From NCBI RefSeq assembly GCF_030013205.1, contig NZ_CP122648.1: 64,000 nucleotides of DNA, one strand, 5' to 3'. Source of the stretch: Escherichia coli (GTDB lineage: Bacteria; Pseudomonadota; Gammaproteobacteria; Enterobacterales; Enterobacteriaceae). This document shows, piece by piece, positions 7,696-57,900 of the stretch; the first letter of the stretch is position 1, and the number at the start of each line of letters is the position of its first letter. The notes under the pieces were generated by a model. That model did no database searches. It was not told the DNA's origin and was given only the letters and a program-made list of their open reading frames with translations. Both the position numbers and the translations under genes were made by a program.

Positions 7696-7799
7696 GAGGT
7701 TGCCCCGTATTCAGTGTCGCTGATTTGTATTGTCTGAAGTTGTTTTTACGTTAAGTTGATGCAGATCAATTAATACGATACCTGCGTCATAATTGATTA

Positions 7800-12479: not shown

Positions 12480-12576
12480 GGTAAAACATATAAATTCTAT
12501 AATTAGATGTATCTTTCCATTTACGGCAAGGAAGGGGGCTTGGAAGACGTAAAGCATCTCACACCGAGATTATTTT

Positions 12577-13167
12577 TTATATGTCAGGTGTCTGAAGTTT
12601 TGCTTTGGCTCTTAAAATGGTTTGCCGCGAGGTTTTGAATTCCCGGGCAATGGCACTTATACTTACACCTGACTTAATTCGTTCGAATACCGCCTGTTTC
12701 TGTTCTTCATTTAACACAGGTGGTCGACCAAAACGTTTCCCTGCGCCGCGGGCACTTACTATCCCGGAATGAGTGCGTTCAAGTAAAAGGTCTCGTTCAA
12801 ATTCAGCGACTGCTGAAATTACTTGCATCATCATTTTTCCTGTTGGACTGGTCAGGTCAATGCCCCCCAATGCTAAGCAATGCACTCTGATACCTGTTTC
12901 GGTCAGTTGTTCCACTGTTTTCCTGATATCCATTGCATTACAACCAAGGCGATCCAGTTTTGTCACAATCAATTGATCACCACATTTCAGGCGAGCAAGC
13001 AACCGGTTAAAACCAGGACGCTCACTGGTTGCTGCTGAGCCGCTAATGTGTTCTTCGATTATTTGCTGAGGTTTGATTTTAAAACCTGCACTTTCGATTT
13101 CCCGGCGTTGATTTTCGGTGGTCTGATCCAGCGTTGATATCCGACAGTAAGCAAAAATTCGAGACAT
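12577..13167 (-). CDS. pinQ: Serine recombinase / DNA invertase (Pin family)
   Basis: 196 aa; N-terminal resolvase catalytic domain (YCRISTLDQ with catalytic Ser) and C-terminal HTH; convergent with tfa. Confidence 0.8.
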
Positions 13168-13483
13168 AGTGAGACTCTATACGAAATTGGTGTTCATATC
13201 ATAATGCATCTCAGAAAATAATTATGATTATTTTTGTGCATATTTGTATGTACACGTTCGAAAATAAACGAATGCGTATGCAACCCCGTAATTTTGGTGA
13301 GACCCAAAATCGATTTTGTGAAAAATGGCTTTAACTCGGTTTGTTTTTCGAGTTCCGGGCGGACTCAAGGAAGAAGAATAGTGTTGCGTGTTATTTTAAC
13401 CAGATTTCAAGTTGTTTGGTCGTGGAAAAGTGGAGCAAAATGTTGTTAAAGTGGAAAAATGATAAAAAAGTAAGTTTATTATA

Positions 13484-13717
13484 TTACATTTTACCATTTA
13501 AATTTTGGTTGTCTTTAAGAACTGATATCGCTGTTTGTAATAATTCTTTGTTATCCAGCCATGATTTTTTCTTTATGTTTCCTTCAATGTAATCAAGCAA
13601 TGTTCTGGTATTGATAGGTCTTCCCTGTTTTGCTACTTCCACTACAGCATCCCCTAGGATAATTCTTACTTCAGGAAGCTGCGCAGGGAACCACTTTAGG
13701 GTGTCTTTTGATTTCAT
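13484..13717 (-). CDS. ydfK: Small prophage protein YdfK-like (77 aa)
   Basis: ORF 13484..13750; internal ATG at 13715-13717 with an AAGGAA Shine-Dalgarno-like sequence gives 77 aa. Confidence 0.55.
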   Translation of the reverse strand: MKSKDTLKWFPAQLPEVRIILGDAVVEVAKQGRPINTRTLLDYIEGNIKKKSWLDNKELLQTAISVLKDNQNLNGKM

Positions 13718-14502
13718 GAAGATATTCCTTAAAATATTATTGATTTTCATTGCGATATTGTATGTCTGATTCAGGATATGTTGACTTATACATCGGTTTT
13801 GTCTGGGTTATTGGATATGCCAATCCCTAATTTTATTAGGGCATGACTAAAAATGCTGAATATGATAAGGAGAGATGTGATTATCAGTATGCTGTTCATA
13901 TAGCCTCGAATTAGTAATGTGTTATATATGATATAGTTGACAATTTTTATCTTGGGTGTTCTTAAAGTTCGTAGATAAACATTGTCGTTTCAGGTATACA
14001 GGAATGCTAACAGGTGGCAGCAAAAATCAGGCGGTTTATGGCGCAAGCTGAAGCGGCAACTGCAAACTATCTTATGCAGAGACTCTACACGGATTGGGTT
14101 TAAAAGTATACATAGATAACAGTTTTTATCTGAAAAAGAAAAATATCAAGGTGATATAGCCTATATGCCTTTGATGCGGAGGAATGAATGTGATGGGAGT
14201 GATGTATCTGAATAGTTGAAAAACCGCAGACACGCCTTATGCAAGAACGTGCTGCGGTTGGCTGGTAAATTTTTCGATAGTGTGAGTATTGAATGATTTC
14301 CAGCCGTTCTTGATTTTACGCATAAATCCATGAAAAAACTACTTATCTGTTGGGGAGTTTTTTTGGGGCATATATGGGACAGAAATAGGCCCCAGATAGA
14401 CACTGAGATCGAACTTAGGATGCTTTTTAAAAAATGCAACTATCTGAAAAAACCTAGAAAACGCCAAGGAAACCACAGGATGGGAAAAAACACCTGTGAA
14501 TT

Positions 14503-15786
14503 ATGGATTTCCAGTTATATTCGCTCGGCGCAGCGTTAGTGTTTCATGAAATATTTTTTCCTGAATCATCAACGGCAATGGCGTTAATTCTGGCAATGGG
14601 AACCTACGGTGCAGGTTATGTGGCGCGTATTGTCGGAGCATTTATTTTCGGCAAAATGGGCGACAGAATCGGGCGTAAAAAAGTGCTCTTTATTACCATC
14701 ACTATGATGGGGATCTGTACTACCTTAATTGGTGTGCTGCCGACCTATGCACAAATTGGTGTGTTTGCGCCAATTTTGCTGGTGACGCTGCGTATTATTC
14801 AGGGGCTGGGGGCAGGCGCGGAAATTTCCGGTGCCGGCACGATGCTGGCGGAATATGCACCAAAAGGTAAGCGCGGAATTATCTCCTCATTTGTTGCTAT
14901 GGGGACTAACTGCGGAACCTTGAGCGCAACGGCAATCTGGGCCTTTATGTTCTTCATTCTCAGTAAAGAGGAACTGCTTGCGTGGGGATGGCGTATACCG
15001 TTCCTGGCGAGCGTTGTCGTGATGGTCTTTGCTATCTGGTTGCGTATGAATCTGAAAGAAAGCCCGGTCTTTGAGAAGGTTAACGACAGCAACCAACCGA
15101 CAGCAAAACCTGCACCTGCTGGTAGCATGTTCCAGAGCAAATCCTTCTGGCTGGCAACAGGGCTGCGTTTTGGTCAGGCTGGTAACTCCGGTTTAATTCA
15201 GACTTTCCTTGCAGGCTATTTAGTGCAGACGTTATTGTTTAACAAAGCAATTCCAACAGATGCATTGATGATCAGTTCGATTCTCGGCTTTATGACCATT
15301 CCGTTCCTTGGTTGGTTATCCGATAAAATAGGTCGCCGGATCCCGTATATTATTATGAATACCTCTGCGATTGTGCTGGCGTGGCCAATGCTTTCTATCA
15401 TCGTAGATAAAAGCTATGCCCCGAGCACCATTATGGTTGCACTGATTGTGATTCATAACTGTGCGGTGCTGGGATTATTTGCTCTGGAAAACATTACCAT
15501 GGCAGAAATGTTCGGCTGTAAAAACCGCTTTACCCGGATGGCGATTTCTAAAGAAATTGGTGGTCTTATCGCTTCCGGTTTTGGTCCTATCCTGGCGGGT
15601 ATTTTCTGCACCATGACGGAATCCTGGTATCCGATCGCCATTATGATCATGGCATATTCAGTGATTGGTTTAATCTCTGCGCTGAAAATGCCAGAAGTGA
15701 GAGACCGTGATTTAAGTGCACTGGAAGATGCCGCGGAAGATCAACCGCGTGTTGTAACAGCTGCGCAACCTTCAAGAAGTCTGTAA
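14503..15786 (+). CDS. ydfJ: MFS metabolite:H+ symporter-family transporter, apparently N-terminally truncated by the prophage insertion
   Basis: 427 aa polytopic membrane protein starting in what looks like the first transmembrane helix (MDFQLYSLGAALVFHEIFFP); an in-frame stop lies immediately upstream; a phage non-coding region precedes it. Confidence 0.7.
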   Translation: MDFQLYSLGAALVFHEIFFPESSTAMALILAMGTYGAGYVARIVGAFIFGKMGDRIGRKKVLFITITMMGICTTLIGVLPTYAQIGVFAPILLVTLRIIQGLGAGAEISGAGTMLAEYAPKGKRGIISSFVAMGTNCGTLSATAIWAFMFFILSKEELLAWGWRIPFLASVVVMVFAIWLRMNLKESPVFEKVNDSNQPTAKPAPAGSMFQSKSFWLATGLRFGQAGNSGLIQTFLAGYLVQTLLFNKAIPTDALMISSILGFMTIPFLGWLSDKIGRRIPYIIMNTSAIVLAWPMLSIIVDKSYAPSTIMVALIVIHNCAVLGLFALENITMAEMFGCKNRFTRMAISKEIGGLIASGFGPILAGIFCTMTESWYPIAIMIMAYSVIGLISALKMPEVRDRDLSALEDAAEDQPRVVTAAQPSRSL

Positions 15787-19409: not shown

Positions 19410-21455
19410 ATGACAACAATGAATCCTTTCCTTGTGCAAAGCACACTGCCGTATCTGGCTCCCCATTTTGATCAAATTGCCAATCATCACTATCGCCCGG
19501 CATTCGATGAGGGAATGCAGCAAAAGCGGGCAGAAATTGCTGCCATCGCGCTTAACCCGCAAACACCTGATTTCAACAATACTATTCTGGCACTGGAACA
19601 AAGCGGAGAATTACTTACCCGCGTTACCAGCGTCTTTTTTGCGATGACTGCGGCGCATACTAATGATGAATTACAGCGTCTTGATGAACAGTTTTCCGCT
19701 GAACTGGCGGAACTGGCTAATGATATCTATCTGAACGGTGAATTATTCGCGCGGGTAGATGCTGTCTGGCAACGCCGTGAATCCCTGGGACTTGATAGTG
19801 AATCCATCCGCCTGGTGGAGGTCATTCATCAACGTTTTGTCCTTGCCGGAGCCAAACTTGCACAAGCTGATAAAGCAAAATTAAAAGTCCTGAATACAGA
19901 AGCTGCGACCCTGACCAGCCAGTTTAACCAGCGGTTACTGGCAGCAAATAAATCCGGCGGTCTGGTTGTGAACGATTTCGCGCAGCTGGCAGGAATGAGT
20001 GAGCAAGAGATTGCGCTGGCGGCAGAGGCGGCTCGCGAGAAAGGTCTGGATAACAAATGGCTGATTCCGTTGCTGAATACCACCCAGCAACCAGCGCTTG
20101 CTGAACTGCGCGATCGCGCGACGCGTGAAAAACTGTTCACTGCGGGCTGGACGCGAGCGGAAAAAAATGATGCCAATGATACCCGCGCTATCATTCAACG
20201 TCTGGTGGAGATCCGCGCGCAGCAGGCGAAACTGCTTGGTTTCCCTCATTATGCCGCATGGAAAATCGCCGATCAGATGGCAAAAACGCCAGAAGCAGCA
20301 CTCAACTTTATGCGGGAAATTGTTCCAGCGGCGCGTCAACGTGCGAGCGATGAATTAGCCTCCATACAGGCGGTTATCGATAAGCAGCAGGGCGGGTTTA
20401 GCGCGCAGCCGTGGGACTGGGCATTTTATGCCGAGCAGGTAAGACGTGAGAAATTCGATCTCGATGAATCGCAGCTCAAGCCATATTTTGAATTAAACAC
20501 GGTGTTGAATGAAGGTGTATTCTGGACCGCGAATCAGCTCTTCGGTATTAAGTTTGTCGAACGTTTTGATATTCCTGTCTACCATCCTGACGTTCGTGTA
20601 TGGGAAATTTTTGATCATAATGGCGTGGGGCTGGCGTTATTTTACGGTGATTTCTTCGCCCGTGATTCAAAAAGCGGCGGTGCATGGATGGGCAATTTTG
20701 TTGAGCAATCAACGCTTAATGAAACGCATCCGGTAATTTATAACGTCTGCAATTATCAGAAACCCGCTGCCGGTGAGCCTGCGTTGTTACTCTGGGATGA
20801 TGTCATAACCTTATTCCATGAATTTGGTCATACGTTGCACGGCCTCTTTGCCCGCCAGCGTTATGCCACACTTTCCGGCACCAACACGCCGCGTGATTTT
20901 GTCGAATTTCCGTCGCAAATCAACGAACACTGGGCAACGCATCCGCAGGTATTCGCTCGCTACGCCCGGCATTATCAGAGCGGGGCAGCAATGCCTGACG
21001 AACTGCAACAGAAAATGCGTAATGCCAGCCTGTTCAATAAAGGGTATGAGATGAGCGAACTGCTTAGCGCCGCACTTCTCGATATGCGCTGGCATTGCCT
21101 GGAAGAAAACGAAGCAATGCAGGATGTCGATGATTTCGAATTGCGGGCGCTGGTGGCAGAAAATATGGATCTTCCCGCTATACCGCCACGCTATCGCAGC
21201 AGTTATTTCGCCCATATTTTTGGTGGCGGATATGCCGCAGGTTATTACGCTTATCTGTGGACGCAAATGTTGGCCGATGATGGTTACCAGTGGTTTGTTG
21301 AGCAGGGCGGATTAACGCGTGAAAATGGGCGGCGTTTTCGCGAGGCGATTCTTTCCAGAGGTAACAGCGAAGATCTGGAACGCCTGTATCGACAATGGCG
21401 CGGTAAGGCACCTCAGATTATGACGATGCTGCAACATCGTGGCTTGAACGTATAA
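19410..21455 (+). CDS. dcp: Dipeptidyl carboxypeptidase II (M3-family zinc metallopeptidase)
   Basis: 681 aa from the ATG at 19410 (AGGAGAAG upstream); HEFGH zinc-binding motif present. Confidence 0.9.
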   Translation: MTTMNPFLVQSTLPYLAPHFDQIANHHYRPAFDEGMQQKRAEIAAIALNPQTPDFNNTILALEQSGELLTRVTSVFFAMTAAHTNDELQRLDEQFSAELAELANDIYLNGELFARVDAVWQRRESLGLDSESIRLVEVIHQRFVLAGAKLAQADKAKLKVLNTEAATLTSQFNQRLLAANKSGGLVVNDFAQLAGMSEQEIALAAEAAREKGLDNKWLIPLLNTTQQPALAELRDRATREKLFTAGWTRAEKNDANDTRAIIQRLVEIRAQQAKLLGFPHYAAWKIADQMAKTPEAALNFMREIVPAARQRASDELASIQAVIDKQQGGFSAQPWDWAFYAEQVRREKFDLDESQLKPYFELNTVLNEGVFWTANQLFGIKFVERFDIPVYHPDVRVWEIFDHNGVGLALFYGDFFARDSKSGGAWMGNFVEQSTLNETHPVIYNVCNYQKPAAGEPALLLWDDVITLFHEFGHTLHGLFARQRYATLSGTNTPRDFVEFPSQINEHWATHPQVFARYARHYQSGAAMPDELQQKMRNASLFNKGYEMSELLSAALLDMRWHCLEENEAMQDVDDFELRALVAENMDLPAIPPRYRSSYFAHIFGGGYAAGYYAYLWTQMLADDGYQWFVEQGGLTRENGRRFREAILSRGNSEDLERLYRQWRGKAPQIMTMLQHRGLNV

Positions 21456-21819
21456 ACACCACCAATGGCTGGCCTGGATTTATCGCCAGACCAGCCTCGT
21501 TATAGCAGTAATTGCAGCAGCTGGGTGAGGGCAAACTTCACCGCTAATGCGAATGCCGTTTCGCAGTCGCCAGCAAAATTACTTTTTTTGTATACCCTTC
21601 CGTTATAATAATTTTCAAATTTATAAATCTGATTGTTCTGAAATATGTTTAAGACTCTTTAATCTTCTTCTTACTTTAGTGAGTTAAATTCTCTTAATAT
21701 TTGACAGCTAGTTGCCTGATTTTAAATGCCTTATAACAATTGGCAGTATTCTTATTTGTCAATTATAAAAATAGCAACCAGACTTAATAAGTCAAACCAA
21801 ACGCAATTAAGGAGTCAGT

Positions 21820-22212
21820 ATGAAATTTCAGGCCATTGTATTAGCAAGTTTTCTTGTCATGCCTTATGCGTTGGCAGATGACCAGGGCGGATTAAAACAG
21901 GATGCAGCGCCACCGCCGCCTCATGCAATAGAAGATGGCTATCGCGGAACCGATGATGCAAAAAAAATGACCGTTGATTTCGCAAAAACCATGCATGATG
22001 GCGCTTCGGTTTCACTACGCGGTAATTTGATTTCTCACAAAGGAGAGGACCGTTACGTTTTTCGCGATAAGAGCGGTGAAATTAATGTTGTTATTCCTGC
22101 GGCAGTCTTTGATGGACGAGAAGTTCAGCCGGACCAGATGATCAACATTAGCGGTAGTCTGGATAAGAAAAGCGCTCCGGCCGTCGTTCGGGTCACTCAT
22201 TTGCAGAAATAA
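21820..22212 (+). CDS. ydeI: Periplasmic OB-fold (BOF/YgiW-family) stress protein
   Basis: 130 aa with signal peptide [19 protein letters not shown]. Confidence 0.8.
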
Positions 22213-22251
22213 AAATAAATTAGCCTGATGGCCTGAACTACTGGGCCATTA

Positions 22252-22290
22252 GGTTATTGGGTTATTGGGTTATTGGGTTATTGGGTTATG
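22252..22290. repeat. Short tandem repeat: four perfect copies of GGTTATTG plus a partial fifth
   Basis: Read directly from the sequence; lies in the intergenic region between ydeI and dgcZ. Confidence 0.9.
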
Positions 22291-22490
22291 CTATTTGTCA
22301 TCCTTTTAATTGCGATAATGCAGGCTTAATTTACAGAATTAAACACTTTTTTATCTGCTGATTTTGTTTCAAATCACAATGTTATCTCAGAGGTGATTCA
22401 TAACTTCGGATTTCTATGAAAATATTGACGTAATTTTGCTTTTCTCTCGTTAGAATAGCGCGCACAAGGAACTGTGAAAAAGGAGTGGCA

Positions 22491-23381
22491 ATGATCAAGA
22501 AGACAACGGAAATTGATGCCATCTTGTTAAATCTCAATAAGGCTATCGATGCCCACTACCAGTGGCTGGTAAGTATGTTTCGCAGCGTAGTCGCGAGAGA
22601 TGCCAGTAAGCCAGAAATAACGGATAACCATTCTTATGGACTGTGCCAGTTTGGTCGGTGGATTGATCATCTGGGACCACTCGATAACGATGAATTACCT
22701 TATGTTCGGCTAATGGATTCTGCCCATCAACATATGCATAACTGTGGTCGGGAATTAATGCTGGCTATTGTTGAAAATCACTGGCAGGACGCGCATTTCG
22801 ACGCCTTTCAGGAAGGGGTGCTTTCTTTTACTGCGGCATTAACCGATTACAAAATTTATTTGCTGACGATCCGTAGCAATATGGATGTTTTGACGGGATT
22901 GCCGGGTCGTCGGGTTCTTGATGAATCCTTTGATCATCAGTTACGCAACGCTGAGCCTCTGAATCTTTATTTAATGTTGTTGGATATTGACCGATTTAAA
23001 TTGGTTAATGATACCTACGGGCATTTAATCGGCGATGTAGTATTACGCACCCTGGCAACTTACTTAGCCAGTTGGACGCGCGATTACGAAACGGTTTATC
23101 GCTACGGTGGCGAAGAATTTATCATTATTGTCAAAGCGGCTAATGATGAAGAAGCATGTCGTGCAGGTATCAGAATTTGCCAGTTAGTCGATAACCATGC
23201 CATCACACATTCTGAAGGGCATATCAACATTACCGTGACAGCAGGTGTGAGTCGCGCATTTCCTGAAGAGCCTCTGGATGTGGTCATTGGAAGAGCGGAC
23301 CGGGCAATGTATGAGGGTAAGCAAACCGGAAGAAATCGCTGTATGTTTATTGACGAACAAAACGTGATTAACCGAGTTTAA
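22491..23381 (+). CDS. dgcZ: Zinc-regulated diguanylate cyclase (CZB domain plus GGDEF)
   Basis: 296 aa from the ATG at 22491; GGEEF active-site motif (RYGGEEF) present. Confidence 0.85.
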   Translation: MIKKTTEIDAILLNLNKAIDAHYQWLVSMFRSVVARDASKPEITDNHSYGLCQFGRWIDHLGPLDNDELPYVRLMDSAHQHMHNCGRELMLAIVENHWQDAHFDAFQEGVLSFTAALTDYKIYLLTIRSNMDVLTGLPGRRVLDESFDHQLRNAEPLNLYLMLLDIDRFKLVNDTYGHLIGDVVLRTLATYLASWTRDYETVYRYGGEEFIIIVKAANDEEACRAGIRICQLVDNHAITHSEGHINITVTAGVSRAFPEEPLDVVIGRADRAMYEGKQTGRNRCMFIDEQNVINRV

Positions 23382-25203: not shown

Positions 25204-26103
25204 ATGTCGCGAAAAGATGGGGTGTTGGCGCTACTGGTAGTGGTCGTATGGGGGCTAAATTTTGTGGTCATCAAAGTGGGGCTTCATAACATGCCACCGC
25301 TGATGTTGGCCGGTTTGCGCTTTATGCTGGTTGCTTTTCCGGCTATCTTTTTTGTCGCACGACCGAAAGTACCACTGAATTTGCTGCTGGGGTATGGATT
25401 AACCATCAGTTTTGCGCAGTTTGCTTTTCTTTTTTGTGCCATTAACTTCGGTATGCCTGCTGGACTGGCTTCGCTGGTGTTACAGGCACAGGCGTTTTTT
25501 ACTATCGTGCTTGGCGTGTTTACTTTTGGTGAGCGACTGCATGGCAAACAATTGGCGGGGATCGCCTTAGCGATTTTTGGCGTACTGGTGTTAATCGAAG
25601 ATAGTCTGAACGGTCAGCATGTGGCGATGTTCGGCTTTATGTTGACCCTGGCGGCAGCATTTAGTTGGGCGTGTGGCAACATCTTCAATAAAAAGATCAT
25701 GTCGCACTCAACGCGTCCGGCGGTGATGTCGCTGGTAATCTGGAGCGCATTAATCCCAATCATTCCCTTCTTTGTTGCCTCGCTGATTCTCGATGGTTCC
25801 GCAACCATGATTCACAGTCTGGTCACTATCGATATGACCACCATCTTGTCTCTGATGTATCTGGCGTTTGTGGCGACAATTGTTGGTTATGGGATCTGGG
25901 GGACGTTACTGGGACGCTATGAAACCTGGCGGGTTGCACCGTTATCGTTACTGGTGCCCGTAGTAGGACTGGCAAGTGCGGCACTATTGTTGGATGAACG
26001 CTTAACGGGTCTACAATTTTTCGGTGCGGTGCTCATTATGACCGGGCTGTATATCAATGTATTTGGCTTGCGGTGGCGTAAAGCGGTAAAGGTTAGAGGC
26101 TAA
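25204..26103 (+). CDS. eamA: Cysteine / O-acetylserine exporter (DMT superfamily, EamA)
   Basis: 299 aa from the ATG at 25204; two EamA-type repeats. Confidence 0.85.
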   Translation: MSRKDGVLALLVVVVWGLNFVVIKVGLHNMPPLMLAGLRFMLVAFPAIFFVARPKVPLNLLLGYGLTISFAQFAFLFCAINFGMPAGLASLVLQAQAFFTIVLGVFTFGERLHGKQLAGIALAIFGVLVLIEDSLNGQHVAMFGFMLTLAAAFSWACGNIFNKKIMSHSTRPAVMSLVIWSALIPIIPFFVASLILDGSATMIHSLVTIDMTTILSLMYLAFVATIVGYGIWGTLLGRYETWRVAPLSLLVPVVGLASAALLLDERLTGLQFFGAVLIMTGLYINVFGLRWRKAVKVRG

Positions 26104-26109
26104 ACCATA

Positions 26110-26149
26110 CGCACAGAATGTGATGTCAGCACTCTGTGCGTCTGCTTTT
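26110..26149 (+). terminator. Hairpin plus T-rich tract downstream of eamA, at the left edge of the PTS island
   Basis: Stem CGCACAGA / TCTGTGCG with a 15-nt loop, followed by TCTGCTTTTA. Confidence 0.4.
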
Positions 26150-26846
26150 ATCGCGGGAAAAAGTACTTTACCTGGAACTCGAAAATATTGCTGTAAAGTA
26201 ACGAATAATCCAGCGGAATAGAGTTACTGTCCACAGCCTGGGTCTGGATTTTAAGTATGGGATCCCGTGGGCTGATCCGTAAAATACTGGCGATTTCTGG
26301 GGTAGGAAAAGTAGGGGAGAAAGTTTCAAAGGTGCCAATGATTTTGATCCCGCATTCGTTCTCAATATACGAAAATTTGGATTTTTGCATATGTGCTACG
26401 GTTAAATCAGGAAAACGTGCCACTGACATCCACGTTTCTTCTAATTGTGCTGCATTATCCTCAATGAATCGCAGTCTCTTTATGTAATAAACCTGCTCAC
26501 CAGTCACTAAATTCAGCTCAGTCGCAATAGGGGGTGAAGCATCCTGCACTTCAAATTTCATAATCTGACTTCCTGCCTCCTTGCCGCTTTTATGCGCAAT
26601 TTCACTGAAGCTGTTCATGTGATCAATGTGTGCAACAAAATTCTTTTTTTGAATATATGTTCCTGAACCATGCTTTCTATGAATAATTCCTTCGCCTTCC
26701 AGCAAGGATAATGCCTTACGCAGGGTATTACGCGAAACATTATAACGAACAGCGAGTTCAGCTTCTGACGGCAACAAATCACCAACATGCCATGAATAGC
26801 CATTGATCTCGGATTTAAGTAAGCGGGCAATCTTTTGAAAAATCAC
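26148..26846 (-). CDS. GntR/HutC-family transcriptional regulator (HTH plus UTRA-like effector domain)
   Basis: 232 aa; N-terminal GntR HTH (LPSEAELAVRYNVSRNTLRKAL); divergent from the PTS operon. Confidence 0.8.
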   Translation of the reverse strand: MIFQKIARLLKSEINGYSWHVGDLLPSEAELAVRYNVSRNTLRKALSLLEGEGIIHRKHGSGTYIQKKNFVAHIDHMNSFSEIAHKSGKEAGSQIMKFEVQDASPPIATELNLVTGEQVYYIKRLRFIEDNAAQLEETWMSVARFPDLTVAHMQKSKFSYIENECGIKIIGTFETFSPTFPTPEIASILRISPRDPILKIQTQAVDSNSIPLDYSLLYSNIFEFQVKYFFPR

Positions 26847-27044
26847 TTTTGCACCTTTTAAGAGCCATTGAAAACAAGGAGTTGAGTCCTGATTGGTTTA
26901 TCGTATGGTCGAGTCGTTTAATTATCACCCTGATGTTGAACAACTTTAGTGCTGTATTACTGTGATCAATGTACCAGGACGTATAGCTACTGCGGGATAT
27001 GATATTTACACAATGTAATCTGTTATATACCAGTAAGGGAAAAT

Positions 27045-27356
27045 ATGAAAAAAATATTGTTAGTTTGCGCTGCGGGCATGTCAACCAGTATGCTGGTTAA
27101 ACGTATGATTGATCATGCTAACGCTATTTCACTTGAAGTTAATATTTCCGCATTGGCGATTGCAGAGGCTAAAGGGAAAATTAAAAATAACGAAGTTGAC
27201 GTTGTTTTACTTGGCCCGCAAGTTCGCTTTCAGAAACCAGAGATTGAAGCTGTTGCACAGGGGAAAATGCCTGTAGCTGTTATCGAGATGAAAGACTATG
27301 GCACCATGAACGGACAGGCAGTTCTTGAATTTGCGATGAAACTACTGCAAGAGTAA
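27045..27356 (+). CDS. PTS EIIB component, lactose/cellobiose family
   Basis: 103 aa; MKKILLVCAAGMSTSMLV with the phosphorylatable Cys near the N-terminus. Confidence 0.8.
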   Translation: MKKILLVCAAGMSTSMLVKRMIDHANAISLEVNISALAIAEAKGKIKNNEVDVVLLGPQVRFQKPEIEAVAQGKMPVAVIEMKDYGTMNGQAVLEFAMKLLQE

Positions 27357-27431
27357 GAATCTAATATTATTAAACTATTACCTGAACTAACTTTTCACAC
27401 ATCATAAAATGGCTATGGCATACATGCTTTA

Positions 27432-28793
27432 TTGGGATGTATAAATATCCAGAACAACAGGTATAAAAAAATGGGATTAATGACCTCATTCGAACGTGGA
27501 ATGGAACGTTTTCTTGTTCCAGTTGCTATCAAGTTAAACTCACAAAAACATGTTGCAGCGGTGAGAGATGGATTCGTTTTTACGTTTCCAATTATCATGG
27601 CAAGCTCATTAATTATATTAATAAACTTTGCCATATTATCGCCAGACGGCTTTATTGCCGGACTGCTGCATCTGAACAGCGTTTTTCCCAACCTTGAAAA
27701 AGCACAAGCTATTTTTACTCCGGTAATGAATGGCTCTGTAAATATCATGTCAATTATGATTGCTTTCCTGGTCGCCAGAAATATGGCGATTAGCTATGAG
27801 CAAGATGATCTTTTATGCGGATTAACGGCAATAGGCGCATTTTTTATTGTTTATACGCCATATCAGATGATAGATGGGCAAGCATTCCTGACGACCAAAT
27901 ATCTCGGCGCACAGGGGTTGTTTGTTGCTGTTATAGTTGCATTAATCACAAGTGAAATATTTTGTCGCTTAGCTCGAAACCCAAAAATCACCATAACGAT
28001 GCCGGCAGCTGTACCTCCTGCGGTAGCGCGTTCATTTAAAGTTTTATTGCCAATATTTTTTGTCATGGTGTTCTTTTCCGCACTTAATTATTGCCTGACA
28101 CTGATATCCCCGGCAGGATTAAACGATCTTATTTACACATTAATCCAGACGCCGCTCAAACATATGGGAACGAATATCTTTGCGGTAATTATCCTGGGGG
28201 CTGTGGGTAATTTCCTTTGGGTGCTGGGGATCCACGGACCTAATACCACCTCGGCAATTCGAGAAACTGTTTTTTCTGAGGCTAATCTGGAGAATCTCTC
28301 CTGGGCCGCTCAACACGGCACTACCTGGGGCGCGCCATATCCGATTACCTGGACTTCTATTAATGATGCATTCGCCAACTGCGGCGGTTCAGGTATGACG
28401 TTGGGGTTATTGTTGGCTATTTTTATCGCTTCTAAGCGTGCGGAATACCGTGATCTGGCAAAAATGTCGTTTATCCCCGGTATTTTCAATATCAATGAAC
28501 CGGTAATGTTCGGCCTTCCTATTGTACTTAACCCCATCATGATGGTGCCGTTTATTCTGGTTCCCATTGTTAACTGTGCCATTGGTTACTTCTTTGTTTC
28601 GATGGAAATTATTCCACCGGTTGCTTATGCCGTGCCCTGGACTACGCCCGGACCTTTAATTGCTTTCCTCGGAACCGGGGGAAACTGGCTGGCGTTACTG
28701 GTGGGTTTTTTATGTTTAGGTGTGGCGACAATGATCTATTTACCTTTTGTTATTGCCGCCAACAAGGTCAATAACATGACAACTAACGGATAA
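27432..28793 (+). CDS. PTS EIIC permease, lactose/cellobiose family
   Basis: 453 aa polytopic membrane protein between the IIB and IIA genes; alternative start at 27472. Confidence 0.8.
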   Translation: MGCINIQNNRYKKMGLMTSFERGMERFLVPVAIKLNSQKHVAAVRDGFVFTFPIIMASSLIILINFAILSPDGFIAGLLHLNSVFPNLEKAQAIFTPVMNGSVNIMSIMIAFLVARNMAISYEQDDLLCGLTAIGAFFIVYTPYQMIDGQAFLTTKYLGAQGLFVAVIVALITSEIFCRLARNPKITITMPAAVPPAVARSFKVLLPIFFVMVFFSALNYCLTLISPAGLNDLIYTLIQTPLKHMGTNIFAVIILGAVGNFLWVLGIHGPNTTSAIRETVFSEANLENLSWAAQHGTTWGAPYPITWTSINDAFANCGGSGMTLGLLLAIFIASKRAEYRDLAKMSFIPGIFNINEPVMFGLPIVLNPIMMVPFILVPIVNCAIGYFFVSMEIIPPVAYAVPWTTPGPLIAFLGTGGNWLALLVGFLCLGVATMIYLPFVIAANKVNNMTTNG

Positions 28794-34371: not shown

Positions 34372-35562
34372 CTATTGCGTCTGTTCTTCGAGTGTCACTG
34401 GCCAGCGGCGGAAAATGATGATTGACCATATTAACGCGGCAAAGGCAGGCACCGCGCCCACATAACCAATCATCGACATTGACCAGTGCAGACTTACCTG
34501 ATTACCTACCAACGCACCCGCGCCGATTCCAATATTAAATATCCCGGAGAATAGCGCCATCGCGACGTCGGTAGCATCTGGTGCCAGCGCCAGCACTTTA
34601 ACCTGCATACCAAGCCCGATGATCATCATCGCTATCCCCCAGAAAATACTCAGCACCCCGAGGTGTATTTCACTGTTCGCCGCAGGTAGCAGCAGTGCGA
34701 GGCACACCAGCAACAACGCAATCGCCGTACTCACCAACGCAGACGCATACTGATTACCCAGTTTACCGAAAATCACGCTGCCAATAATGCCCGCACCACC
34801 GAGTAATAACAGTAATGCCGTGGCAAAGTTGGCGCTGAATCCCGCAATGTTTTGCACAAAAGGCTCGATATAGCTGTATGCCGTGTAATGGGCGGTGACA
34901 ACCACCACAGTTAACAAATAAATGCTCATTAATGCCGGGCGGCGGAACAATAGCGGGAGGCTTTTCAATGAACCGGAATGCTCACTGGGCAGCAAGGGAA
35001 GTAACTTAATCAGGCACAAAAGGGTAATAAACGCCCCGATACCAATCGCGAAGAAGGTCATTCGCCAGCCAAAATACTGCCCCACAATGCGCCCGAGAGG
35101 TAAACCTAATACCATTGCCAGTGCTGTACCGGTGGCAATTAAACTCAACGCCTGCGCTCGCTTCCCGGCCGGAGCCATACGGATCGCCAGAGACGCCGTA
35201 ATCGACCAGAAAATCGCATGTGCAAAAGCCACACCAATGCGACTGATCACCAGAACGGTAAAGCTCCACGACAAAAACGACAGTACGTGGCTGGCAATAA
35301 ATACCACAAACAGGCAGATCAGTAATTTGCGTCGTTCAACCTGGCTGGTCATTAACATAAAAGGCAATGACATTAGCGCCACTACCCATGCATAAATCGT
35401 CAACATGATGCCGACCTGAGCGGTTTGCATGTGAAAACTTTGCGCAATGTCAGAGAGCAGGCCAACAGGGACAAATTCGGTGGTGTTGAAGATGAAGGCG
35501 GCGACTGCCAGCGTAACGACCCGTAGCCACGCCACTTTGCGGGAAACAGTGTTTGTTGTCAT
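34372..35562 (-). CDS. sotB: MFS sugar efflux transporter
   Basis: 396 aa, 12-TM MFS pattern. Confidence 0.8.
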
Positions 35563-35711
35563 AACAGATTATCGGGTGAGTTGCGAAAAAGTGATGAAAT
35601 GATCTTAAAACGGTTAATGATGTGAATACAATGCATTTGTGATCTGGATCGCGTTTTCCGTTTCTCTGACGCTGATTCTTTCACGCGTCAGAGAGTCGGT
35701 CACATCACGGT

Positions 35712-36827
35712 TTAATAACGTTCAGGGAGGTCTGGCGTTTTGGAGGTTGCGGGTATAGGTGGTCTGACAGGGGAGCGAGGCCTGTTTTTCACCAGGTCTT
35801 CATGAGTAACTTTTGGCGGCGTTTCATTTTTTACAAAAAGTTTGAGGGTCTTGCACGCCATATGTTTGATAATTTTATCATCACTTAATGATGCTGGCAT
35901 CAACACGTCAATCAAATCACTTTCATTGGGATTCATAAATTGGTGATAGTGCAATAACATATTGGCGAAAAATAAAAACAAGTCCTGAAAATGTGGAAAA
36001 TCTTGTTCTGCTAAAAGGGATAAAAAGCAGATGCAGACTTCGGGTAGTACATGTTTGTTAGAACCTAGTGAATCCATCAGACTTTGCAATAAATCCTCTT
36101 TTAATTCGCTGTCCGTTATGTCGAGAATAGCGGTGAGCAAGTTAGGTTCTTTATTCCCGAACCATCTGTGAACCTCAGAGTTATTCCATAATCGGGGGAG
36201 TATGACAAAATTACCGCGAGAGATAAAATTCAGGACAAGCAAATCAAACTGGCGTAAGTAATCTGCAGCGGTATGGTGATCCGGATGCAGGGGTTCAATA
36301 TGTGGCGTATGCGCTCTTTTGATAGGAACGCCAGGGTTGATTATTGGAAATTGTTCTATAAAGTCATTCAGAAACAGAAAGAGCACACGCTCGACGCCGG
36401 TCTGAAATACGCGCCCCATAGTGACAGGCTTTGGGTTGGGAGCGCAAAAAATATTAATTTCCCCATCATGGCGGAAATTATCTAAATAAATAGGGCTTAA
36501 ATTTATTACTACCTGAAATTCAATATTTTCTTTGTGTCTTCCATTCTTGACGGGATAAGTGAGTTTAAACTGAACCTTTTCATTGTATAGCGTGTCGTTA
36601 CCCCGAAAAGAAGTCCTCTGAATATATGATAAGTTGTCAAGGTTATTAAATATCTTTTTTGTGGCTGAGTTGATGTTTAAAGACGTGCGCCACTCTTCAT
36701 CACAGATTATTGTACTTAGCGCATCAATAAAATCCTTTAAAATTTCTTTTACCTGAGGAGCAATATTACGAACGGGAAAATCATCAGGAAGAGATATGTA
36801 ATTGCTGATGCTTACTGGCGTAACCAT
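35712..36827 (-). CDS. yneK: Uncharacterised protein (YneK-like), AT-rich gene with Pro-rich C-terminus
   Basis: 371 aa ORF with no recognisable domain; C-terminus RPRSPVRPPIPATSKTPDLPERY; visibly lower GC than its neighbours. Confidence 0.7.
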   Translation of the reverse strand: MVTPVSISNYISLPDDFPVRNIAPQVKEILKDFIDALSTIICDEEWRTSLNINSATKKIFNNLDNLSYIQRTSFRGNDTLYNEKVQFKLTYPVKNGRHKENIEFQVVINLSPIYLDNFRHDGEINIFCAPNPKPVTMGRVFQTGVERVLFLFLNDFIEQFPIINPGVPIKRAHTPHIEPLHPDHHTAADYLRQFDLLVLNFISRGNFVILPRLWNNSEVHRWFGNKEPNLLTAILDITDSELKEDLLQSLMDSLGSNKHVLPEVCICFLSLLAEQDFPHFQDLFLFFANMLLHYHQFMNPNESDLIDVLMPASLSDDKIIKHMACKTLKLFVKNETPPKVTHEDLVKNRPRSPVRPPIPATSKTPDLPERY

Positions 36828-36910
36828 ATTTGCCCCATATAGTCATAAGTCATCGGAGCATCACTATATAGAGCATATTAGCCGCAAGAACTATCAAAAA
36901 TAGCTCATTG

Positions 36911-37786
36911 CTAACTCTGTTTTGCCGAGTCAGACACATCCAGTAGTTGAATAAATGCCTCAAGCGGACGCGTTTTCGCACCGCGACGCCAGACCAGCCA
37001 GGTTGTTAACCAACGCCATTGCTCAGCTAACGGCCACGCTTCAACCTGGTGATGCCCCGGCATACTTTCCAGCATAGAGCGCGGAATAAGCGCAATACCT
37101 GCTCCTGCGACCACACAGGCCAACATTCCGTGATAAGACTCCATCTCATGGATAGTTCCCGGAGCGGCACCGTCAGCATGAAACCAGCTCTCGAAGTGGC
37201 GACGATACGAACAATTGGCGCGGAAGGCATAAATGTTACTGCCATTAACCTGACTGGCGCGGGTTACTGGCGCATGTCCTTGTGGCGTGACGATCATCAG
37301 CTCCTCGCGGTACACCGGTATCCCGTCAATGGCAGTATGGTTAATGGGCCCATCAATAAACGCTGCATTCAGTTTTCCCTCCAGCACACCTTCCAGCATA
37401 GTGCCGGAAGGGCCGGTGGAAAGTGAAAACTGAATTTTGGGATAACGACGGTTAAATTGCGCCAGCGTGGCCGGAATGCGCACCGCTGCGGTGCTTTCCA
37501 GCGAACCAAGAGAAAATAAACCTTGCGGCTCATCGCCAGCGACAACGCTCCGCGCTTCATCCACTAACGCGAGAATTTGTTGGCTATAGCGTAAAAAGTT
37601 ATGCCCGGCAGGCGAGAGACGTAAACGCTGATTCTCGCGAATAAACAGATCAACCCCCAGTTCTGTTTCCAGCTGGCGTAGACGGGTAGTGAGATTCGAC
37701 GGCACGCGATGCACTTTTGCTGCAGCCTGGGTAATGCTGCCAGCTTCGGCAACCGCGTTGAACATCTCCAGTTGGGTCAGATCCAT
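36911..37786 (-). CDS. yneJ: LysR-family transcriptional regulator
   Basis: 291 aa; N-terminal LysR HTH; divergent from sad. Confidence 0.8.
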
Positions 37787-37886
37787 AATATTCTCGATTC
37801 ATGAATAAGTGGCTTAATATTATTCATTTTCAAGCAAGAGTAAATCTGCGTATCTTTTTACCATAACTCATAAAGGAGATACCCCG

Positions 37887-52868: not shown

Positions 52869-54461
52869 ATGGCTCGACTCTTTACCCCTTCTGAATCAAA
52901 GAACTACCTGATGGCGCTGGATGCAGGTACCGGAAGTATTCGGGCTGTGATATTCGACCTGGAAGGCAATCAAATAGCCGTGGGACAGGCGGAGTGGCGG
53001 CACCTGGCAGTACCGGACGTTCCTGGTTCTATGGAATTTGATCTCAACAAAAACTGGCAACTGGCGTGTGAGTGTATGCGCCAGGCGCTGCACAACGCCG
53101 GCATAGCCCCGGAGTATATCGCTGCCGTTTCGGCATGTTCGATGCGCGAAGGTATTGTTTTATATAACAATGAAGGAACACCGATCTGGGCCTGCGCCAA
53201 TGTGGATGCCAGAGCGGCGCGCGAAGTTAGCGAACTTAAAGAACTGCACAACAATACCTTTGAAAACGAAGTTTATCGCGCCACCGGACAAACGCTGGCT
53301 TTAAGCGCTATTCCCAGATTACTTTGGCTGGCGCACCATCGTTCTGATATCTACCGACAGGCGTCGACCATCACCATGATCAGCGACTGGCTGGCCTATA
53401 TGCTCAGCGGCGAACTGGCGGTGGATCCCTCTAACGCTGGCACCACGGGACTTCTTGATCTAACCACCCGTGACTGGAAACCTGCATTGCTGGATATGGC
53501 CGGACTGCGGGCCGATATTCTTTCTCCTGTCAAAGAAACCGGCACATTGCTGGGCGTGGTAAGTTCACAAGCGGCGGAACTCTGCGGTCTGAAGGCGGGC
53601 ACTCCGGTGGTCGTTGGAGGAGGCGACGTGCAACTTGGTTGCCTGGGGTTAGGTGTTGTCCGTCCGGCACAAACCGCTGTTCTTGGCGGTACATTCTGGC
53701 AGCAAGTTGTAAACTTAGCCGCGCCGGTGACAGACCCAGAAATGAACGTGCGCGTTAATCCTCATGTTATTCCTGGCATGGTACAAGCTGAATCTATAAG
53801 CTTTTTTACCGGACTCACCATGCGCTGGTTCCGCGATGCTTTCTGTGCCGAAGAAAAACTGATTGCCGAACGTTTAGGCATCGACACCTATACGCTGCTG
53901 GAAGAGATGGCCAGTCGGGTGCCGCCTGGGTCGTGGGGCGTAATGCCGATATTCTCCGACAGAATGCGCTTTAAAACCTGGTATCACGCTGCGCCTTCCT
54001 TTATTAACTTGTCCATTGACCCGGATAAATGTAACAAAGCGACATTGTTCCGTGCGCTGGAAGAAAATGCGGCGATTGTATCAGCGTGTAACTTGCAGCA
54101 AATTGCTGATTTCTCGAATATTCATCCCACCTCTCTGGTCTTTGCAGGCGGAGGTTCAAAAGGGAAATTATGGAGTCAAATTCTCGCTGATGTCTCGGGA
54201 TTACCCATCAATATTCCAGTGGTCAAAGAAGCCACTGCATTAGGATGTGCCATTGCAGCTGGCGTCGGTGCCGGAATTTTTTCATCAATGGCAGAAACCG
54301 GAGAACGCCTGGTTCGCTGGGAACGGACGCACACACCAGACCCGGAAAAGCATGAACTTTATCAGGATTCACGCGATAAGTGGCAGGCAGTTTATCAGGA
54401 TCAGCTGGGGCTGGTTGATCATGGACTGACGACGTCGTTATGGAAAGCACCTGGGTTATAG
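52869..54461 (+). CDS. lsrK: Autoinducer-2 kinase (FGGY carbohydrate kinase family)
   Basis: 530 aa FGGY-kinase pattern. Confidence 0.85.
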
Positions 54462-54984
54462 TTTCATTGACAGCCACATCATGATGACCGTGGCTGTTAG
54501 TTTTTGAGTATTCTTATTTCCCTTCTTTTAGAGCTGGCTTGTTAAATGCCAGCTTGCAGATTCATCGTTCCATCGCCAGTAATATATTCAAGGGGAAATT
54601 GCTATTTTTCTTAAAACATTAAGCATAACCCTTATTTTATAGCGAATATTCCTAAAGGCATAAATGAATGAAAAAGAGTTTTAATAGAGTTCTTTTTTAG
54701 CAATTAATGCTATTCTTTGTTAAATATGATGATGGTAATATTCTTATTCACAGAAACAGTTTTCTTATTAAGCAACAATAACTCATGGTTCATTTTTAAA
54801 TAAAATAAGAACTATGCAATTTTTAATCTATCAATTCGAAAGTATTAGCAAATTAGCCAAATTGACACCTTCCCACCTCCAACCAACACTCAATACAGAC
54901 CTCTGACAATTTAATAAGTTTCATTTTTAATGTCTGACGACTCATCTCTTTCGTGGCTGTATTGTTTGTATATGGAGCGTTTAT

Positions 54985-57900
54985 ATGAATAGAATCTATC
55001 GCGTGATATGGAATTGCACCCTACAGGTATTTCAGGCCTGCTCGGAATTGACTCGCAGGGTAGGTAAAACATCAACGGTTAATTTGCGTAAATCCTCTGG
55101 ACTGACAACGAAATTCAGTAGATTGACGCTGGGTGTTTTGCTGGCACTAAGCGGTTCAGCGTCTGGTGCGAGTCTGGAAGTTGATAATGATCAGATTACC
55201 AATATTGATACTGATGTTGCTTATGATGCCTACCTGGTTGGCTGGTATGGCACTGGAGTGCTTAATATTTGGGCTGGCGGTAATGCCTCCTTAACCACTA
55301 TTACTACCAGCGTCATTGGTGGTAATGAGAACTCGAAGGGCACCGTTAATGTTTTGGGTGGCACCTGGCGATTGTATGAACGGGCGAAGCTTTCCGCTAT
55401 ATCTATATCGGTGATGCTGGCGATGGTGAACTTAATGTCTCGAGTGAAGGCAAAGTAGATTCGGGAATTATCACTGCGGGGATGAAAGAAACAGGCACAG
55501 GCAACATTACTGTTAAGGATAAGAACTCCGTTATCACTAATCTCGGAACTAATCTTGGTTATGACGGCCACGGCGAAATGAATATCAGTAATGAGGGGCT
55601 TGTTGTCAGCAACGGAGGAAGCTCACTCGGTTATGGAGAAACCGGCGTCGGGAAGGTTAGCATCACCACGGGGGGGATGTGGGAGGTCAATAAGAATGTC
55701 TATACCACTATTGGTGTTGCGGGCGTCGGAAACCTCAATATCAGCGATGGCGGTAAGTTCGTATCGCAAAATATTACTTTTTTGGGCGATAAAGCAAGCG
55801 GTATCGGCACACTGAACCTGATGGATGCGACATCATTGTTCGATACTGTAGGTATCAATGTCGGTAATTTTGGTAGCGGCATCGTAAATGTCAGTAATGG
55901 TGCCACTCTTAATTCAACGGGCTATGGATTTATCGGAGGAAATGCCTCCGGTAAGGGGATAGTTAATATTTCAACGGATAGTCTCTGGAATTTAAAAACG
56001 TCATCTACTAACGCCCAATTGCTACAGGTCGGTGTATTAGGCGCGGGTGAACTGAATATTACCACCGGAGGTATAGTTAAAGCACGTGATACACAAATAG
56101 CTCTCAATGACAAAAGTAAGGGCGACGTGCGGGTGGATGGGCAGAACTCTCTTCTTGAAACATTCAATATGAACGTAGGGACGACTGGCACAGGTACGTT
56201 AACCCTGACGAATAACGGTACGCTGAATGTCGAAGGTGGAGAAGTTTACTTAGGTGTTTTTGCGCTTGCTGTAGGAACGCTAAACATTGGTGCTGCTCAC
56301 GGTGAGGCGGCGGCAGATGCCGGATTTATCACCAATGCGACGAAAGTGGAGTTTGGTCTTGGCGAAGGCGTTTTTGTCTTTAATCATACCAATAACAGTG
56401 ATGCCGGCTACCAGGTCGATATGCTGATTACGGGTGACGATAAAGACGGAAAAGTGATGCATGATGCAGGCCATACGGTGTTCAATGCAGGGAATACTTA
56501 TAGCGGTAAAACGTTGGTCAATGGCGGCCTCCTGACCATTGCGTCACATACGGCAGATGGGGTAACTGGCATGGGTTCGAGTGAAGTAACCATTGCAAGC
56601 CCCGGTACGCTCGACATTCTCGCATCAACGAACAGTGCGGGAGATTACACGCTGACCAATGCGCTCAAAGGCGATGGCTTGATGCGAGTGCAGCTGTCAT
56701 CCTCCGACAAAATGTTTGGCTTTACCCATGCAGCAGGGACTGAATTCGCCGGTGTTGCCCAACTGAAAGACAGTACCTTCGCACTGGAACGCGACAACAC
56801 CGCTGCGCTTACTCACGCGATGCTGCAGTCTGACAGTGAAAATACCACATCGGTAAAAGTGGGAGAGCAATCCATTGGTGGACTAGCCATGAATGGCGGT
56901 ACGCTCACTTTCGATACGGATATACCTGCTGCGACGCTTGCGGAGGGATATATCAGCGTCGATACACTGGTTGTCGGCGCGGGTGACTACACCTGGAAAG
57001 GCCGTAACTATCAGGTAAACGGGACGGGCGACGTGCTTATCGACGTGCCTAAACCGTGGAATGATCCCATGGCGAATAACCCTCTGACGACGCTCAATTT
57101 GCTGGAACACGATGATAGCCATGTCGGCGTTCAACTGGTGAAGGCGCAAACGGTTATTGGGTCGGGTGGCTCATTAACGTTACGTGATTTACAGGGCGAC
57201 GAGGTGGAAGCGGACAAAACGTTACACATTGCACAAAACGGAATAGTGGTCGCCGAGGGTGATTATGGATTCCGCCTCACGACCGCACCAGGTGATGGTT
57301 TGTACGTTAACTATGGGCTGAAAGCGCTGAACATCCATGGTGGGCAAAAGCTGACGTTAGCCGAACATGGCGGAGCCTATGGCGCAACGGCCGATATGTC
57401 GGCAAAAATCGGTGGTGAAGGGGATCTGGCAATCAATACGGTGCGACAGGTTTCGCTTTCTAACGGTCAGAACGACTATCAGGGGGCAACCTACGTTCAG
57501 ATGGGGACATTACGTACCGATGCGGATGGCGCGCTGGGCAATACTCGGGAACTGAACATCAGCAACGCGGCCATCGTCGATCTTAATGGATCGGCCCAGA
57601 CGGTAGAGACATTCACCGGGCTGATGGGTTCGACTGTTTTGTTTAAAGAGGGGTCGCTGACGGTGAATAAAGGTGGGATCAGTCAGGGCGAACTGACAGG
57701 TGGCGGAAACCTGAATGTTACAGGGGGAACACTGGCTATCGAGGGGCTTAATGCACGCTACAATGCGTTAACCAGCATTAGCCCAAATGCCGAAGTCAGC
57801 CTCGATAATACGCAGGGGTTAGGCAGAGGAAATATTGCCAATGACGGTCTGTTAACGCTAAAAAATGTGACCGGCGAACTGCGTAATAGCATAAGCGGGA

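Follow-up and report, generated by a model that had tools for sequence, protein, structure and literature searches.

The open reading frame (ORF) at positions 35712-36827 of a 64,000-nucleotide stretch of Escherichia coli contig NZ_CP122648.1 (hereafter the window) is yneK (b1527) itself, a member of the YneK family. The explanation that best accounts for the whole of the evidence, to which we assign a probability of about 0.6, is that yneK is a genus-restricted orphan protein-coding gene that arrived as an old single-gene insertion and is constrained yet dispensable. An earlier reading of the window, made from the sequence only, had described an AT-rich, "yneK-like" ORFan of 371 amino acids (aa) between sotB and yneJ (ptrR). 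The ORF list and the annotation bear out its position, length and neighbours. The gene named was the right one, and only the word "like" proved too weak.

The identification rests on a match to NCBIfam NF033404 ("putative protein YneK", an equivalog) at 813.7 bits (E = 1.7e-245, cut-off 40 bits), which runs over the full length of the protein, with residues 1-371 on model positions 1-371. The ORF shows no difference from this family, whose name carries no functional information. The 1.5-kb yneK region is 100% identical to DNA of E. coli K_EC180, whose annotation names the gene yneK, and the same name is used throughout RefSeq, in 5,418 of the 5,426 E. coli genomes that have some match. The window is thus E. 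coli chromosome. The protein is 95-98% identical to the aligned K-12-type alleles, including that of K-12 C600, at the same length and in the same position; the K-12 counterpart, b1527, is given in the literature as UniProt P76150. The gene is therefore already catalogued and uncharacterised, an ordinary orphan that does not reveal a new system or mechanism. No functional study of it was found in the literature, in line with the sequence-only reading, which had left its function unassigned; the qualification to be added is that yneK is not merely decaying junk, its intact copies being under purifying selection. Mentions of "yneK" in nucleoid proteome and DynA papers concern an unrelated Bacillus subtilis gene, and literature matches to "b1527" are strain names.

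Domain searches agreed with the earlier statement that the protein has no recognisable domain. Pfam returned 0 matches and PADLOC 0 families (both at E<=10), PHROGs gave nothing better than E>=0.038, and a profile search of all PDB sequences reached E = 3.4 at best, a chance match to OspA. A Foldseek search with models of YneK found nothing at E<=0.001, so that neither Pfam, the PDB profile search nor Foldseek placed the protein in a housekeeping family.

The taxonomic range was correspondingly narrow. In 5.8 billion clustered proteins YneK formed 22 clusters, all of them from E. coli, Shigella or E. albertii, or unlabelled at >=67% identity. An exhaustive hidden Markov model/profile search of 1.84 billion representatives produced 48 matches, short fragments, and inspection of the 14 lowest-scoring or oddest of these revealed frameshifted or fragmentary E. 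coli-like sequences and no distant relatives. Searches with tblastn found nothing in 50,697 phage records and, in 72,556 plasmid records, only mislabelled chromosomes or chromosomal fragments. YneK is thus a true genus-restricted orphan with homologues in Escherichia only (E. coli, Shigella, E. albertii), the same conclusion that was reached by a published BLASTp survey of GTDB representatives (PMC12757027).

Some individual records among these matches deserve comment. The yneK-bearing "plasmids" NZ_CP141089.1, NZ_CP134663.1 and NZ_OL790696.1 in PLSDB are 4.8-4.9 Mb long and evidently chromosomes, and three smaller PLSDB records (42-386 kb) bear a chromosomal remnant of the yneK deletion allele described below. 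A contig labelled "MAG: Caldithrix sp. CR04bin15" (SMXE01000224.1; MAG, metagenome-assembled genome; locus L008) lies at a distance of 0.000 from C600 across sotB, marC and yneJ, and is almost certainly E. coli contamination.

Anatomy and age of the insertion

The GC content of yneK is 39.6% (39.8% at third codon positions, GC3), visibly below that of its neighbours as the sequence-only reading had remarked: sotB has 51.4%, yneJ 54.0%, sad 52.9% and marC 50.8% (46-54% across the neighbours, 51-54% in the flanking core genes), and GC3 is 0.50-0.59 in the flanking core genes versus 0.40 in yneK. The window as a whole has 47.4% GC, and yneK stands at the 9th percentile of its segments of the same length, clearly low and not unique.

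From species-representative genomes, 80 sotB loci were fetched, and yneK and yneJ were located in each. In E. albertii, yneK occupies the same position with the same synteny and is 67-68% identical. The ptrR-sotB junction is without trace of yneK in Salmonella enterica subspecies, several Citrobacter and Trabulsiella, where the gap is 108-250 bp, and is likewise empty in three cryptic Escherichia genomes, L009, L010 and L011 (E. whittamii). When the junctions were aligned, they defined an insert of 1,258 bp (39.9% GC), made up of a leader, the yneK ORF and a 3' hairpin, which sits within the final ptrR/yneJ codons, directly ahead of the ancestral promoter region of sotB (Table 1). About 95 bp upstream of sotB are ancestral and common to all aligned junctions.

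A direct repeat flanks the insert. Both copies read CGACAAAACG in E. albertii, and the empty sites hold a single CGGCAAAATGA, with the ancestral ptrR stop inside it. This is the pattern expected of a target-site duplication; the repeat is suggestive and, being short, not proof of transposition. The cassette also brought its own flanks, a leader and a 3' hairpin, both conserved. Between E. coli and E. albertii, identity is 85.7% in the leader, compared with 73.3% in the coding sequence (CDS) and 56.9% at its third codon positions. The hairpin begins about 20 nt past the yneK stop and has a predicted dG of -26.7 kcal/mol (z = -4.07; equalled by 0 of 200 shuffled sequences); its stem persists, with different loops, in both E. 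albertii and the deletion allele, and since the hairpin has no U-tract it was not called as an intrinsic terminator. No Rfam family was found in 33-39 kb. We also considered an integron cassette, a reading that was dropped because the junctions misfit the GTTRRRY / RYYYAAC core sites on direct reading.

The leader, hairpin and repeat support arrival as a foreign cassette, and the horizontal acquisition put forward by the sequence-only reading now follows from four independent lines of evidence: base composition, the absence of homologues outside Escherichia, the empty orthologous junctions, and an 8-10 bp direct repeat that is single-copy in the empty sites. As to a donor, no homologue was present in the plasmid and phage collections or in any other taxon searched.

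Table 1 Features of the yneK locus, in window coordinates
Feature	Position	Strand	Basis or remark
yneK CDS	35712-36827	minus	ORF list; ATG start, 371 aa
sotB/ydeA	34372-35562	minus	downstream neighbour of yneK
ptrR (yneJ), LysR-type regulator	36911-37792	minus	directly upstream of yneK; ORF list and annotation
Left direct-repeat copy, CGGCAAAAC	36919-36927	minus	within last ptrR/yneJ codons; junction alignment
Right direct-repeat copy, CGG-AAAAC	35653-35660	minus	homology to empty-site genomes restarts here
sotB upstream region	35563-35652	minus	ancestral; aligns across Escherichia, Salmonella, Citrobacter, Trabulsiella
Leader, 83 nt, ptrR/yneJ stop to yneK start	36828-36910	minus	part of the inserted cassette
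3' stem-loop, 10-bp perfect stem CTCTGACGC(G).../...GCGTCAGAG	35663-35695	minus	predicted fold
Most conserved block, aa 150-215 (FLFLNDFIEQFP..PIKRAHTPHIEPL..DHHTAADYLRQFD..NFISRGNFVI), His/Glu/Asp-rich loop	36183-36380	minus	alignment, invariant columns
Pro-rich, predicted-disordered C-terminal tail, aa 336-371	35715-35822	minus	predicted local distance difference test (pLDDT) < 50 in both models
T6 homopolymer in yneK CDS (nt ~377-382)	36446-36451	minus	frameshift site
PtrR operator, TTCTCGATTCATGAA	37791-37805	plus	ptrR start / sad-ptrR intergenic region; pattern search, one mismatch to PMC9068703 site

At synonymous sites the E. coli and E. albertii copies of yneK have diverged (dS 1.28) to much the same degree as the flanking genes (dS 0.46-1.23), which places the insertion at about the age of the E. 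coli-E. albertii split. In a local tree built from sotB, marC and yneJ, E. albertii falls outside a group in which the yneK-less L009-L011 stand beside L012 plus E. coli, so that the cryptic lineages without yneK come between E. albertii and E. coli. The simplest reading is that yneK was inserted once, ahead of the divergence of these species, and was lost several times afterwards. The nearest non-coli lineage, L012 (Escherichia sp. MOD1-EC7003), lacks yneK and retains an E. coli-type ptrR 3' end, indicating a secondary deletion. Disrupted copies are also found where the gene is kept: yneK has a premature stop with an ORF restart at codon ~102 in the E. albertii type strain NBRC 107761 (L046 2727-3842), whereas further assemblies of this species (L004-L006) have it intact, and Shigella sonnei has a truncated form.

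Two compositional details of these regions are recorded here. After ptrR, the ptrR-sotB gap of L012 (~3831-4000) holds ~60 bp of unrelated sequence (ATATGATGAAAATTTTTCAGATCTGTGTTGCACTTGCTACCTACACAGTAGTTGG...) with an inverted repeat (TGTGT...ACACA). Elsewhere in the window, GC drops below 42% over several segments at least about 1 kb long, at ~1700-4500, 4700-8300, 12400-15000, 21300-23000, 25950-28500 and 53850-55800, with a minimum of 33.6% near 6400; the E. coli average GC lies above the 47.4% of the window.

Selection and inactivation in E. coli and E. albertii

Within E. coli, two allele classes of yneK were distinguished. The second (class 2) differs by 12.5% in DNA and 17% in protein (83% identical). 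It was first met in a gut metagenome contig (P0004; L007 179-1294) and occurs at >=99% identity in 19 of 5,426 complete genomes (H67-H85, e.g. L102 3701-4816), in which it is intact; since the next-best match is only 87.5%, the classes are discrete. The divergent block covers ~35.4-37.6 kb, reaching ptrR on one side and the 5' end of sotB on the other, a pattern to be expected of a segment recombined from a divergent lineage, or of an old polymorphism. Among the common class-1 alleles, nucleotide diversity (pi) is 3.3% compared with 2-3% in sotB and yneJ, which is not exceptional, and the notion of yneK as a diversity hotspot was abandoned.

Three independent comparisons agree that yneK is a real coding gene whose intact copies are under purifying selection, with ratios of nonsynonymous to synonymous change of 0.16-0.19. 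Between species (dN/dS) the value is 0.157 against E. albertii, six neighbouring genes giving 0.005-0.064; between class 1 and class 2 it is 0.161 at dS 0.57; and the corresponding polymorphism ratio (pN/pS) is 0.185 among 12 distinct intact E. coli alleles.

This constraint is uneven. The block at aa 150-215 is 86% identical to E. albertii, with dN/dS of 0.06 in that comparison and 0.064 between the E. coli allele classes. Against E. albertii, dN/dS is 0.08 for aa 61-130, 0.23 for the helical C-terminal region and 0.21 for the tail. Between classes, aa 1-130 and 150-215 have 0.03-0.07, the short linker 131-149 has 0.32, aa 216-335 have 0.21 and the tail reaches 0.58. The N-terminal residues 1-215 are thus tightly constrained, and the helical C-terminal domain and Pro-rich tail evolve fast.

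At the same time, yneK is dispensable. At least 80% of the yneK region is kept in 4,233 of 5,426 complete E. coli genomes, and one internal deletion allele, which fuses the first 34 codons to the last few, accounts for a fifth of the collection (1,116 of 5,426; for example L001 2630-2830, strain FDAARGOS_144). For intactness, 20 complete genomes (H1-H20) were taken at even steps down the match ranking, and the annotation of 17 was opened; H1 has the same sequence as the window, and for H18-H19 the assignment used match statistics identical to those of H17. The gene is intact in 12 of the 20 (~60%) and inactivated in the other 8, by the shared internal deletion (H17-H19), a T6->T5 frameshift (H4, H15), a GAA->TAA nonsense change at codon 263 (H12), an IS3 insertion (H16) and a larger deletion into sotB (H20). 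The frameshift is the same in two otherwise different alleles (JNEC-KY171, VE-V10-F), with a stop at codon 153, and the T6 run may be a recurrent slippage site.

The 3' remnant of the internal deletion allele ends LPDRH*, as class 2 does, yet is 9% different from class 2, and the ptrR of this allele is class-1-like; the idea that this B2-type allele is a simple derivative of class 2 is therefore only partly true.

Predicted protein and expression

YneK has a mass of 42.9 kDa, an isoelectric point of 6.1 and a grand average of hydropathicity of -0.23; its top 19-residue hydrophobic window scores only 1.18, and hence no transmembrane segment is assigned. Pro makes up 9 of the final 36 residues (25%) versus 8.1% of the whole protein, and the C-terminus ...NRPRSPVRPPIPATSKTPDLPERY is exactly the Pro-rich segment that the sequence-only reading had described. 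Only the pieces RPRSPV and KTP are conserved in the tail among orthologues, and the tail is the least constrained part of the protein.

Structure prediction was carried out as that reading had proposed, in two AlphaFold2 runs with 4 and 11 sequences. Confidence was low (mean pLDDT 52 and 48), and the secondary structure agrees between the runs: helices 24-61, three long antiparallel strands 66-113, a helix 139-159, an unmodelled invariant loop 160-186 (PIKRAHTPHIEPLxxDHH), helices 187-332 and a disordered tail. Weak structural matches of the model (5-13% identity, high root-mean-square deviation, pLDDT ~50) are generic to helical bundles, and no membership is claimed from them. YneK would thus be a soluble cytoplasmic 43-kDa protein in two parts, a strongly constrained alpha/beta core (aa ~20-215) ending in the invariant His/Glu/Asp-rich loop (KRxHTPHIEPLxxxHH), and a fast-evolving all-helical domain (aa ~230-332) followed by the disordered Pro-rich tail. 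As a tentative proposal, which we regard as doubtful, the core might bind a metal or small ligand or be catalytic, and the helical domain and tail might form a partner surface that diverges between lineages, giving a niche-specific benefit that is unnecessary in many of them. The block at aa 150-215 is the region to mutate, and natural knock-outs and alleles are available for comparison.

Expression of yneK is low. Published RNA-seq gives a base mean of 14.1 reads for yneK versus 222 for sad (PMC9068703), and in a ptrR deletion yneK rises by 2.78 log2 together with sad (PMC9068703 Table 5). A consensus scan recognised neither a sigma-70-like promoter in the leader nor a terminator in the gap from ptrR to yneK. 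On account of these two negative scans, the rise in the ptrR deletion and the PtrR operator at the ptrR start, the most economical model is that yneK is weakly transcribed, largely by read-through from the PtrR-controlled ptrR promoter, possibly with help from a signal in the conserved leader that the scan did not recognise.

Genomic systematic evolution of ligands by exponential enrichment (gSELEX) has detected protein binding in this region. Peaks of NtrC and the RpoN holoenzyme (PMC8743547) and of the RpoH holoenzyme (PMC5493296) are reported in the ptrR-yneK spacer, and taken together the gSELEX studies put RpoN, RpoH and RpoS holoenzyme and NtrC binding inside or adjoining it. A sigma-54 promoter behind the RpoN/NtrC peak was looked for and set aside, no consensus within 2 mismatches being found in 35.7-37.0 kb. 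On the plus strand, positions 36828-36850 at the yneK start and leader contain CCCCATAT, with CTTACTG 15 nt upstream (read by eye). We take the former to equal the sigma-32 -10 consensus, CCCCATNT, as a consensus match only; such a promoter would drive transcription antisense into the ptrR 3' end.

The AT-rich body of yneK is a likely target of H-NS-type xenogeneic silencing, as its base composition and low expression suggest; silencing, which the sequence-only reading had thought possible, is only indirectly supported. AT-rich acquired ORFans silenced by H-NS are established for E. coli and Salmonella. Like these, yneK lies 11-14 GC points below its flanking genes, is taxonomically restricted, is expressed at a very low level and is lost sporadically; unlike most recent islands, it is roughly as old as the E. 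coli-E. albertii split, and purifying selection still acts on it.

As a K-12 "y-gene" without assigned function, yneK is a case in which any handle is a small gain for annotating the bacterium that has been studied best. Added here are the age and anatomy of the insertion with its target-site-like repeat, own leader and 3' hairpin; a restriction to Escherichia that stands up to searches of billions of metagenomic proteins; purifying selection, strong on the N-terminal core and relaxed enough at the C-terminus for fast evolution; expendability; and two allele classes 12.5% apart.

Weighing the alternatives

Several points weigh against an old, constrained single-gene insertion as we have described it. 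The direct repeat is only 8-10 bp and imperfect in E. coli, and no integrase, transposase, terminal inverted repeats or tRNA were found at the yneK site. The clean empty site in three cryptic lineages could mean that yneK was exchanged early between the E. coli and E. albertii lineages by homologous recombination, and not precise loss. The figure of ~60% intact comes from 20 genomes of a clinically biased collection. As for expression, the resistance cassette may have had a polar effect, in which case the higher yneK level of the ptrR mutant would not reflect lost regulation, and no data or statement on H-NS at yneK were found in the literature.

The gene could also be functionless, a silenced foreign remnant drifting to loss whose frame is open by chance or through recent origin. 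Its very low expression would fit, as would the inactivated copies in ~40% of the sampled genomes, which arose by at least five different lesions, the pseudogene of the E. albertii type strain and the truncation in S. sonnei. In a CRISPR-associated transposon (CAST) host-factor screen, yneK was a non-validated hit with no phenotype validated (PMC12757027). Laboratory deletions of the yneK region are tolerated and even beneficial under butanol stress; deletions selected under butanol/isobutanol stress include yneK, and their authors credit marC and other genes. Otherwise the gene is listed in a codon-bias table. Against drift, a frame of 371 codons has stayed open and co-linear over an E. coli-E. 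albertii divergence of dS > 1, at dN/dS 0.157, with pN/pS 0.185 among intact E. coli alleles, and neutral drift would not give the uneven constraint of 0.03-0.07 in the N-terminal 215 aa versus 0.58 in the tail. A pure-junk reading is contradicted by these selection data, and we consider it unlikely. To a similar degree we doubt that yneK has been recruited into the PtrR circuit of gamma-aminobutyrate (GABA), putrescine and glutamate metabolism, as an accessory protein co-expressed with ptrR and tied to sad-glsB. The gene does lie on the same strand, 83 nt downstream of ptrR across a terminator-free gap, rises with sad in the ptrR deletion (PMC9068703), sits behind a PtrR operator at the ptrR start, and has in its spacer an NtrC/RpoN gSELEX peak that suggests a nitrogen-related context (PMC8743547). 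However, ptrR-sad-glsB works without yneK in Salmonella, Citrobacter, cryptic Escherichia and the 20% of E. coli with the deletion allele; the spacer has no sigma-54 consensus, the possible polar effect applies here as well, and the chance site of the insertion accounts for the position.

Conflict with a host or a parasite offers further explanations, all of them still less probable. YneK might be a secreted, host-directed effector, for example a substrate of the ancestral E. coli type III secretion system 2 (ETT2) or of the locus of enterocyte effacement (LEE) system, with a Pro-rich tail mimicking Src homology 3 (SH3) ligands or proline-directed kinase motifs; we judge this very improbable. 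Comparators are the Pro-rich regions of the EspF/Tir type and the WxxxE family of Map, IpgB and SifA. YneK resembles such effectors in its low GC, its single-gene island, its Ser/Ile/Pro-rich N-terminus, the PxxP-type motifs of its disordered tail and one WxxxE; it is unlike them in that no similarity of sequence or fold was detected, including to Map, IpgB2 and SifA (PDB sequence search, Foldseek). In favour, 52% of the first 25 residues (MVTPVSISNYISLPDDFPVRNIAPQ) are Ser, Thr, Pro, Asn or Ile, the 94th percentile of 47 long window ORFs by a crude and unvalidated heuristic of our own; PRSPVR (PxxPxR) and SPVR (S-P-x-R) occur in the tail; W214-x-x-x-E218 is present; and a conserved N-terminal part with a variable C-terminal part would be compatible. 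The motifs do not hold up, as their residues vary between orthologues: the R of PxxPxR/SPVR is lost in E. albertii (SPVS), and WxxxE, which is WNNSE in class 1, is broken in class 2, WNKPQ (E -> Q). We accordingly gave up the SH3-ligand and WxxxE idea. No secretion-system, chaperone or virulence genes are adjacent, the neighbours in E. coli and E. albertii being mar, sotB, ptrR, sad and glsB, and yneK is intact in K-12 and many commensals. A weak pan-genome (Scoary) association with bovine recto-anal cell adherence failed closer examination; its authors had no interpretation for it and suggest linkage with marB (PMC11540155).

A bolder version seems to us just as remote: YneK would found a new family with a new fold, with a catalytic or metal-binding His/Glu/Asp loop and with a rapidly diverging helical domain and eukaryote-like Pro-rich tail that target a host or competitor protein, and would be a relic effector of ancestral Escherichia secretion machinery that E. 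coli has kept in two ancient allele classes. The least probable reading makes YneK a single-gene accessory, for anti-phage defence or toxin-like, carried by a small variable island. The low-GC island with its presence/absence polymorphism, the two deeply divergent classes (12.5% in nucleotides) and the fast C-terminal domain form a pattern frequent in genes of parasite conflict; yet no PADLOC model matches, no defence, toxin or antitoxin genes are neighbours, the location is fixed and not among the known hotspots of defence genes, overall dN/dS stays well below 1 with no region above 0.6, and there are no phage homologues. An old, constrained and dispensable single-gene insertion accordingly remains our preferred account of yneK.

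The start of the upstream gene is annotated variably. PtrR/YneJ has 293 aa (882 nt) in RefSeq, beginning two codons upstream of the first ATG of the ORF lister (291 aa), and it is annotated at 876 nt in one genome (SCU-102).

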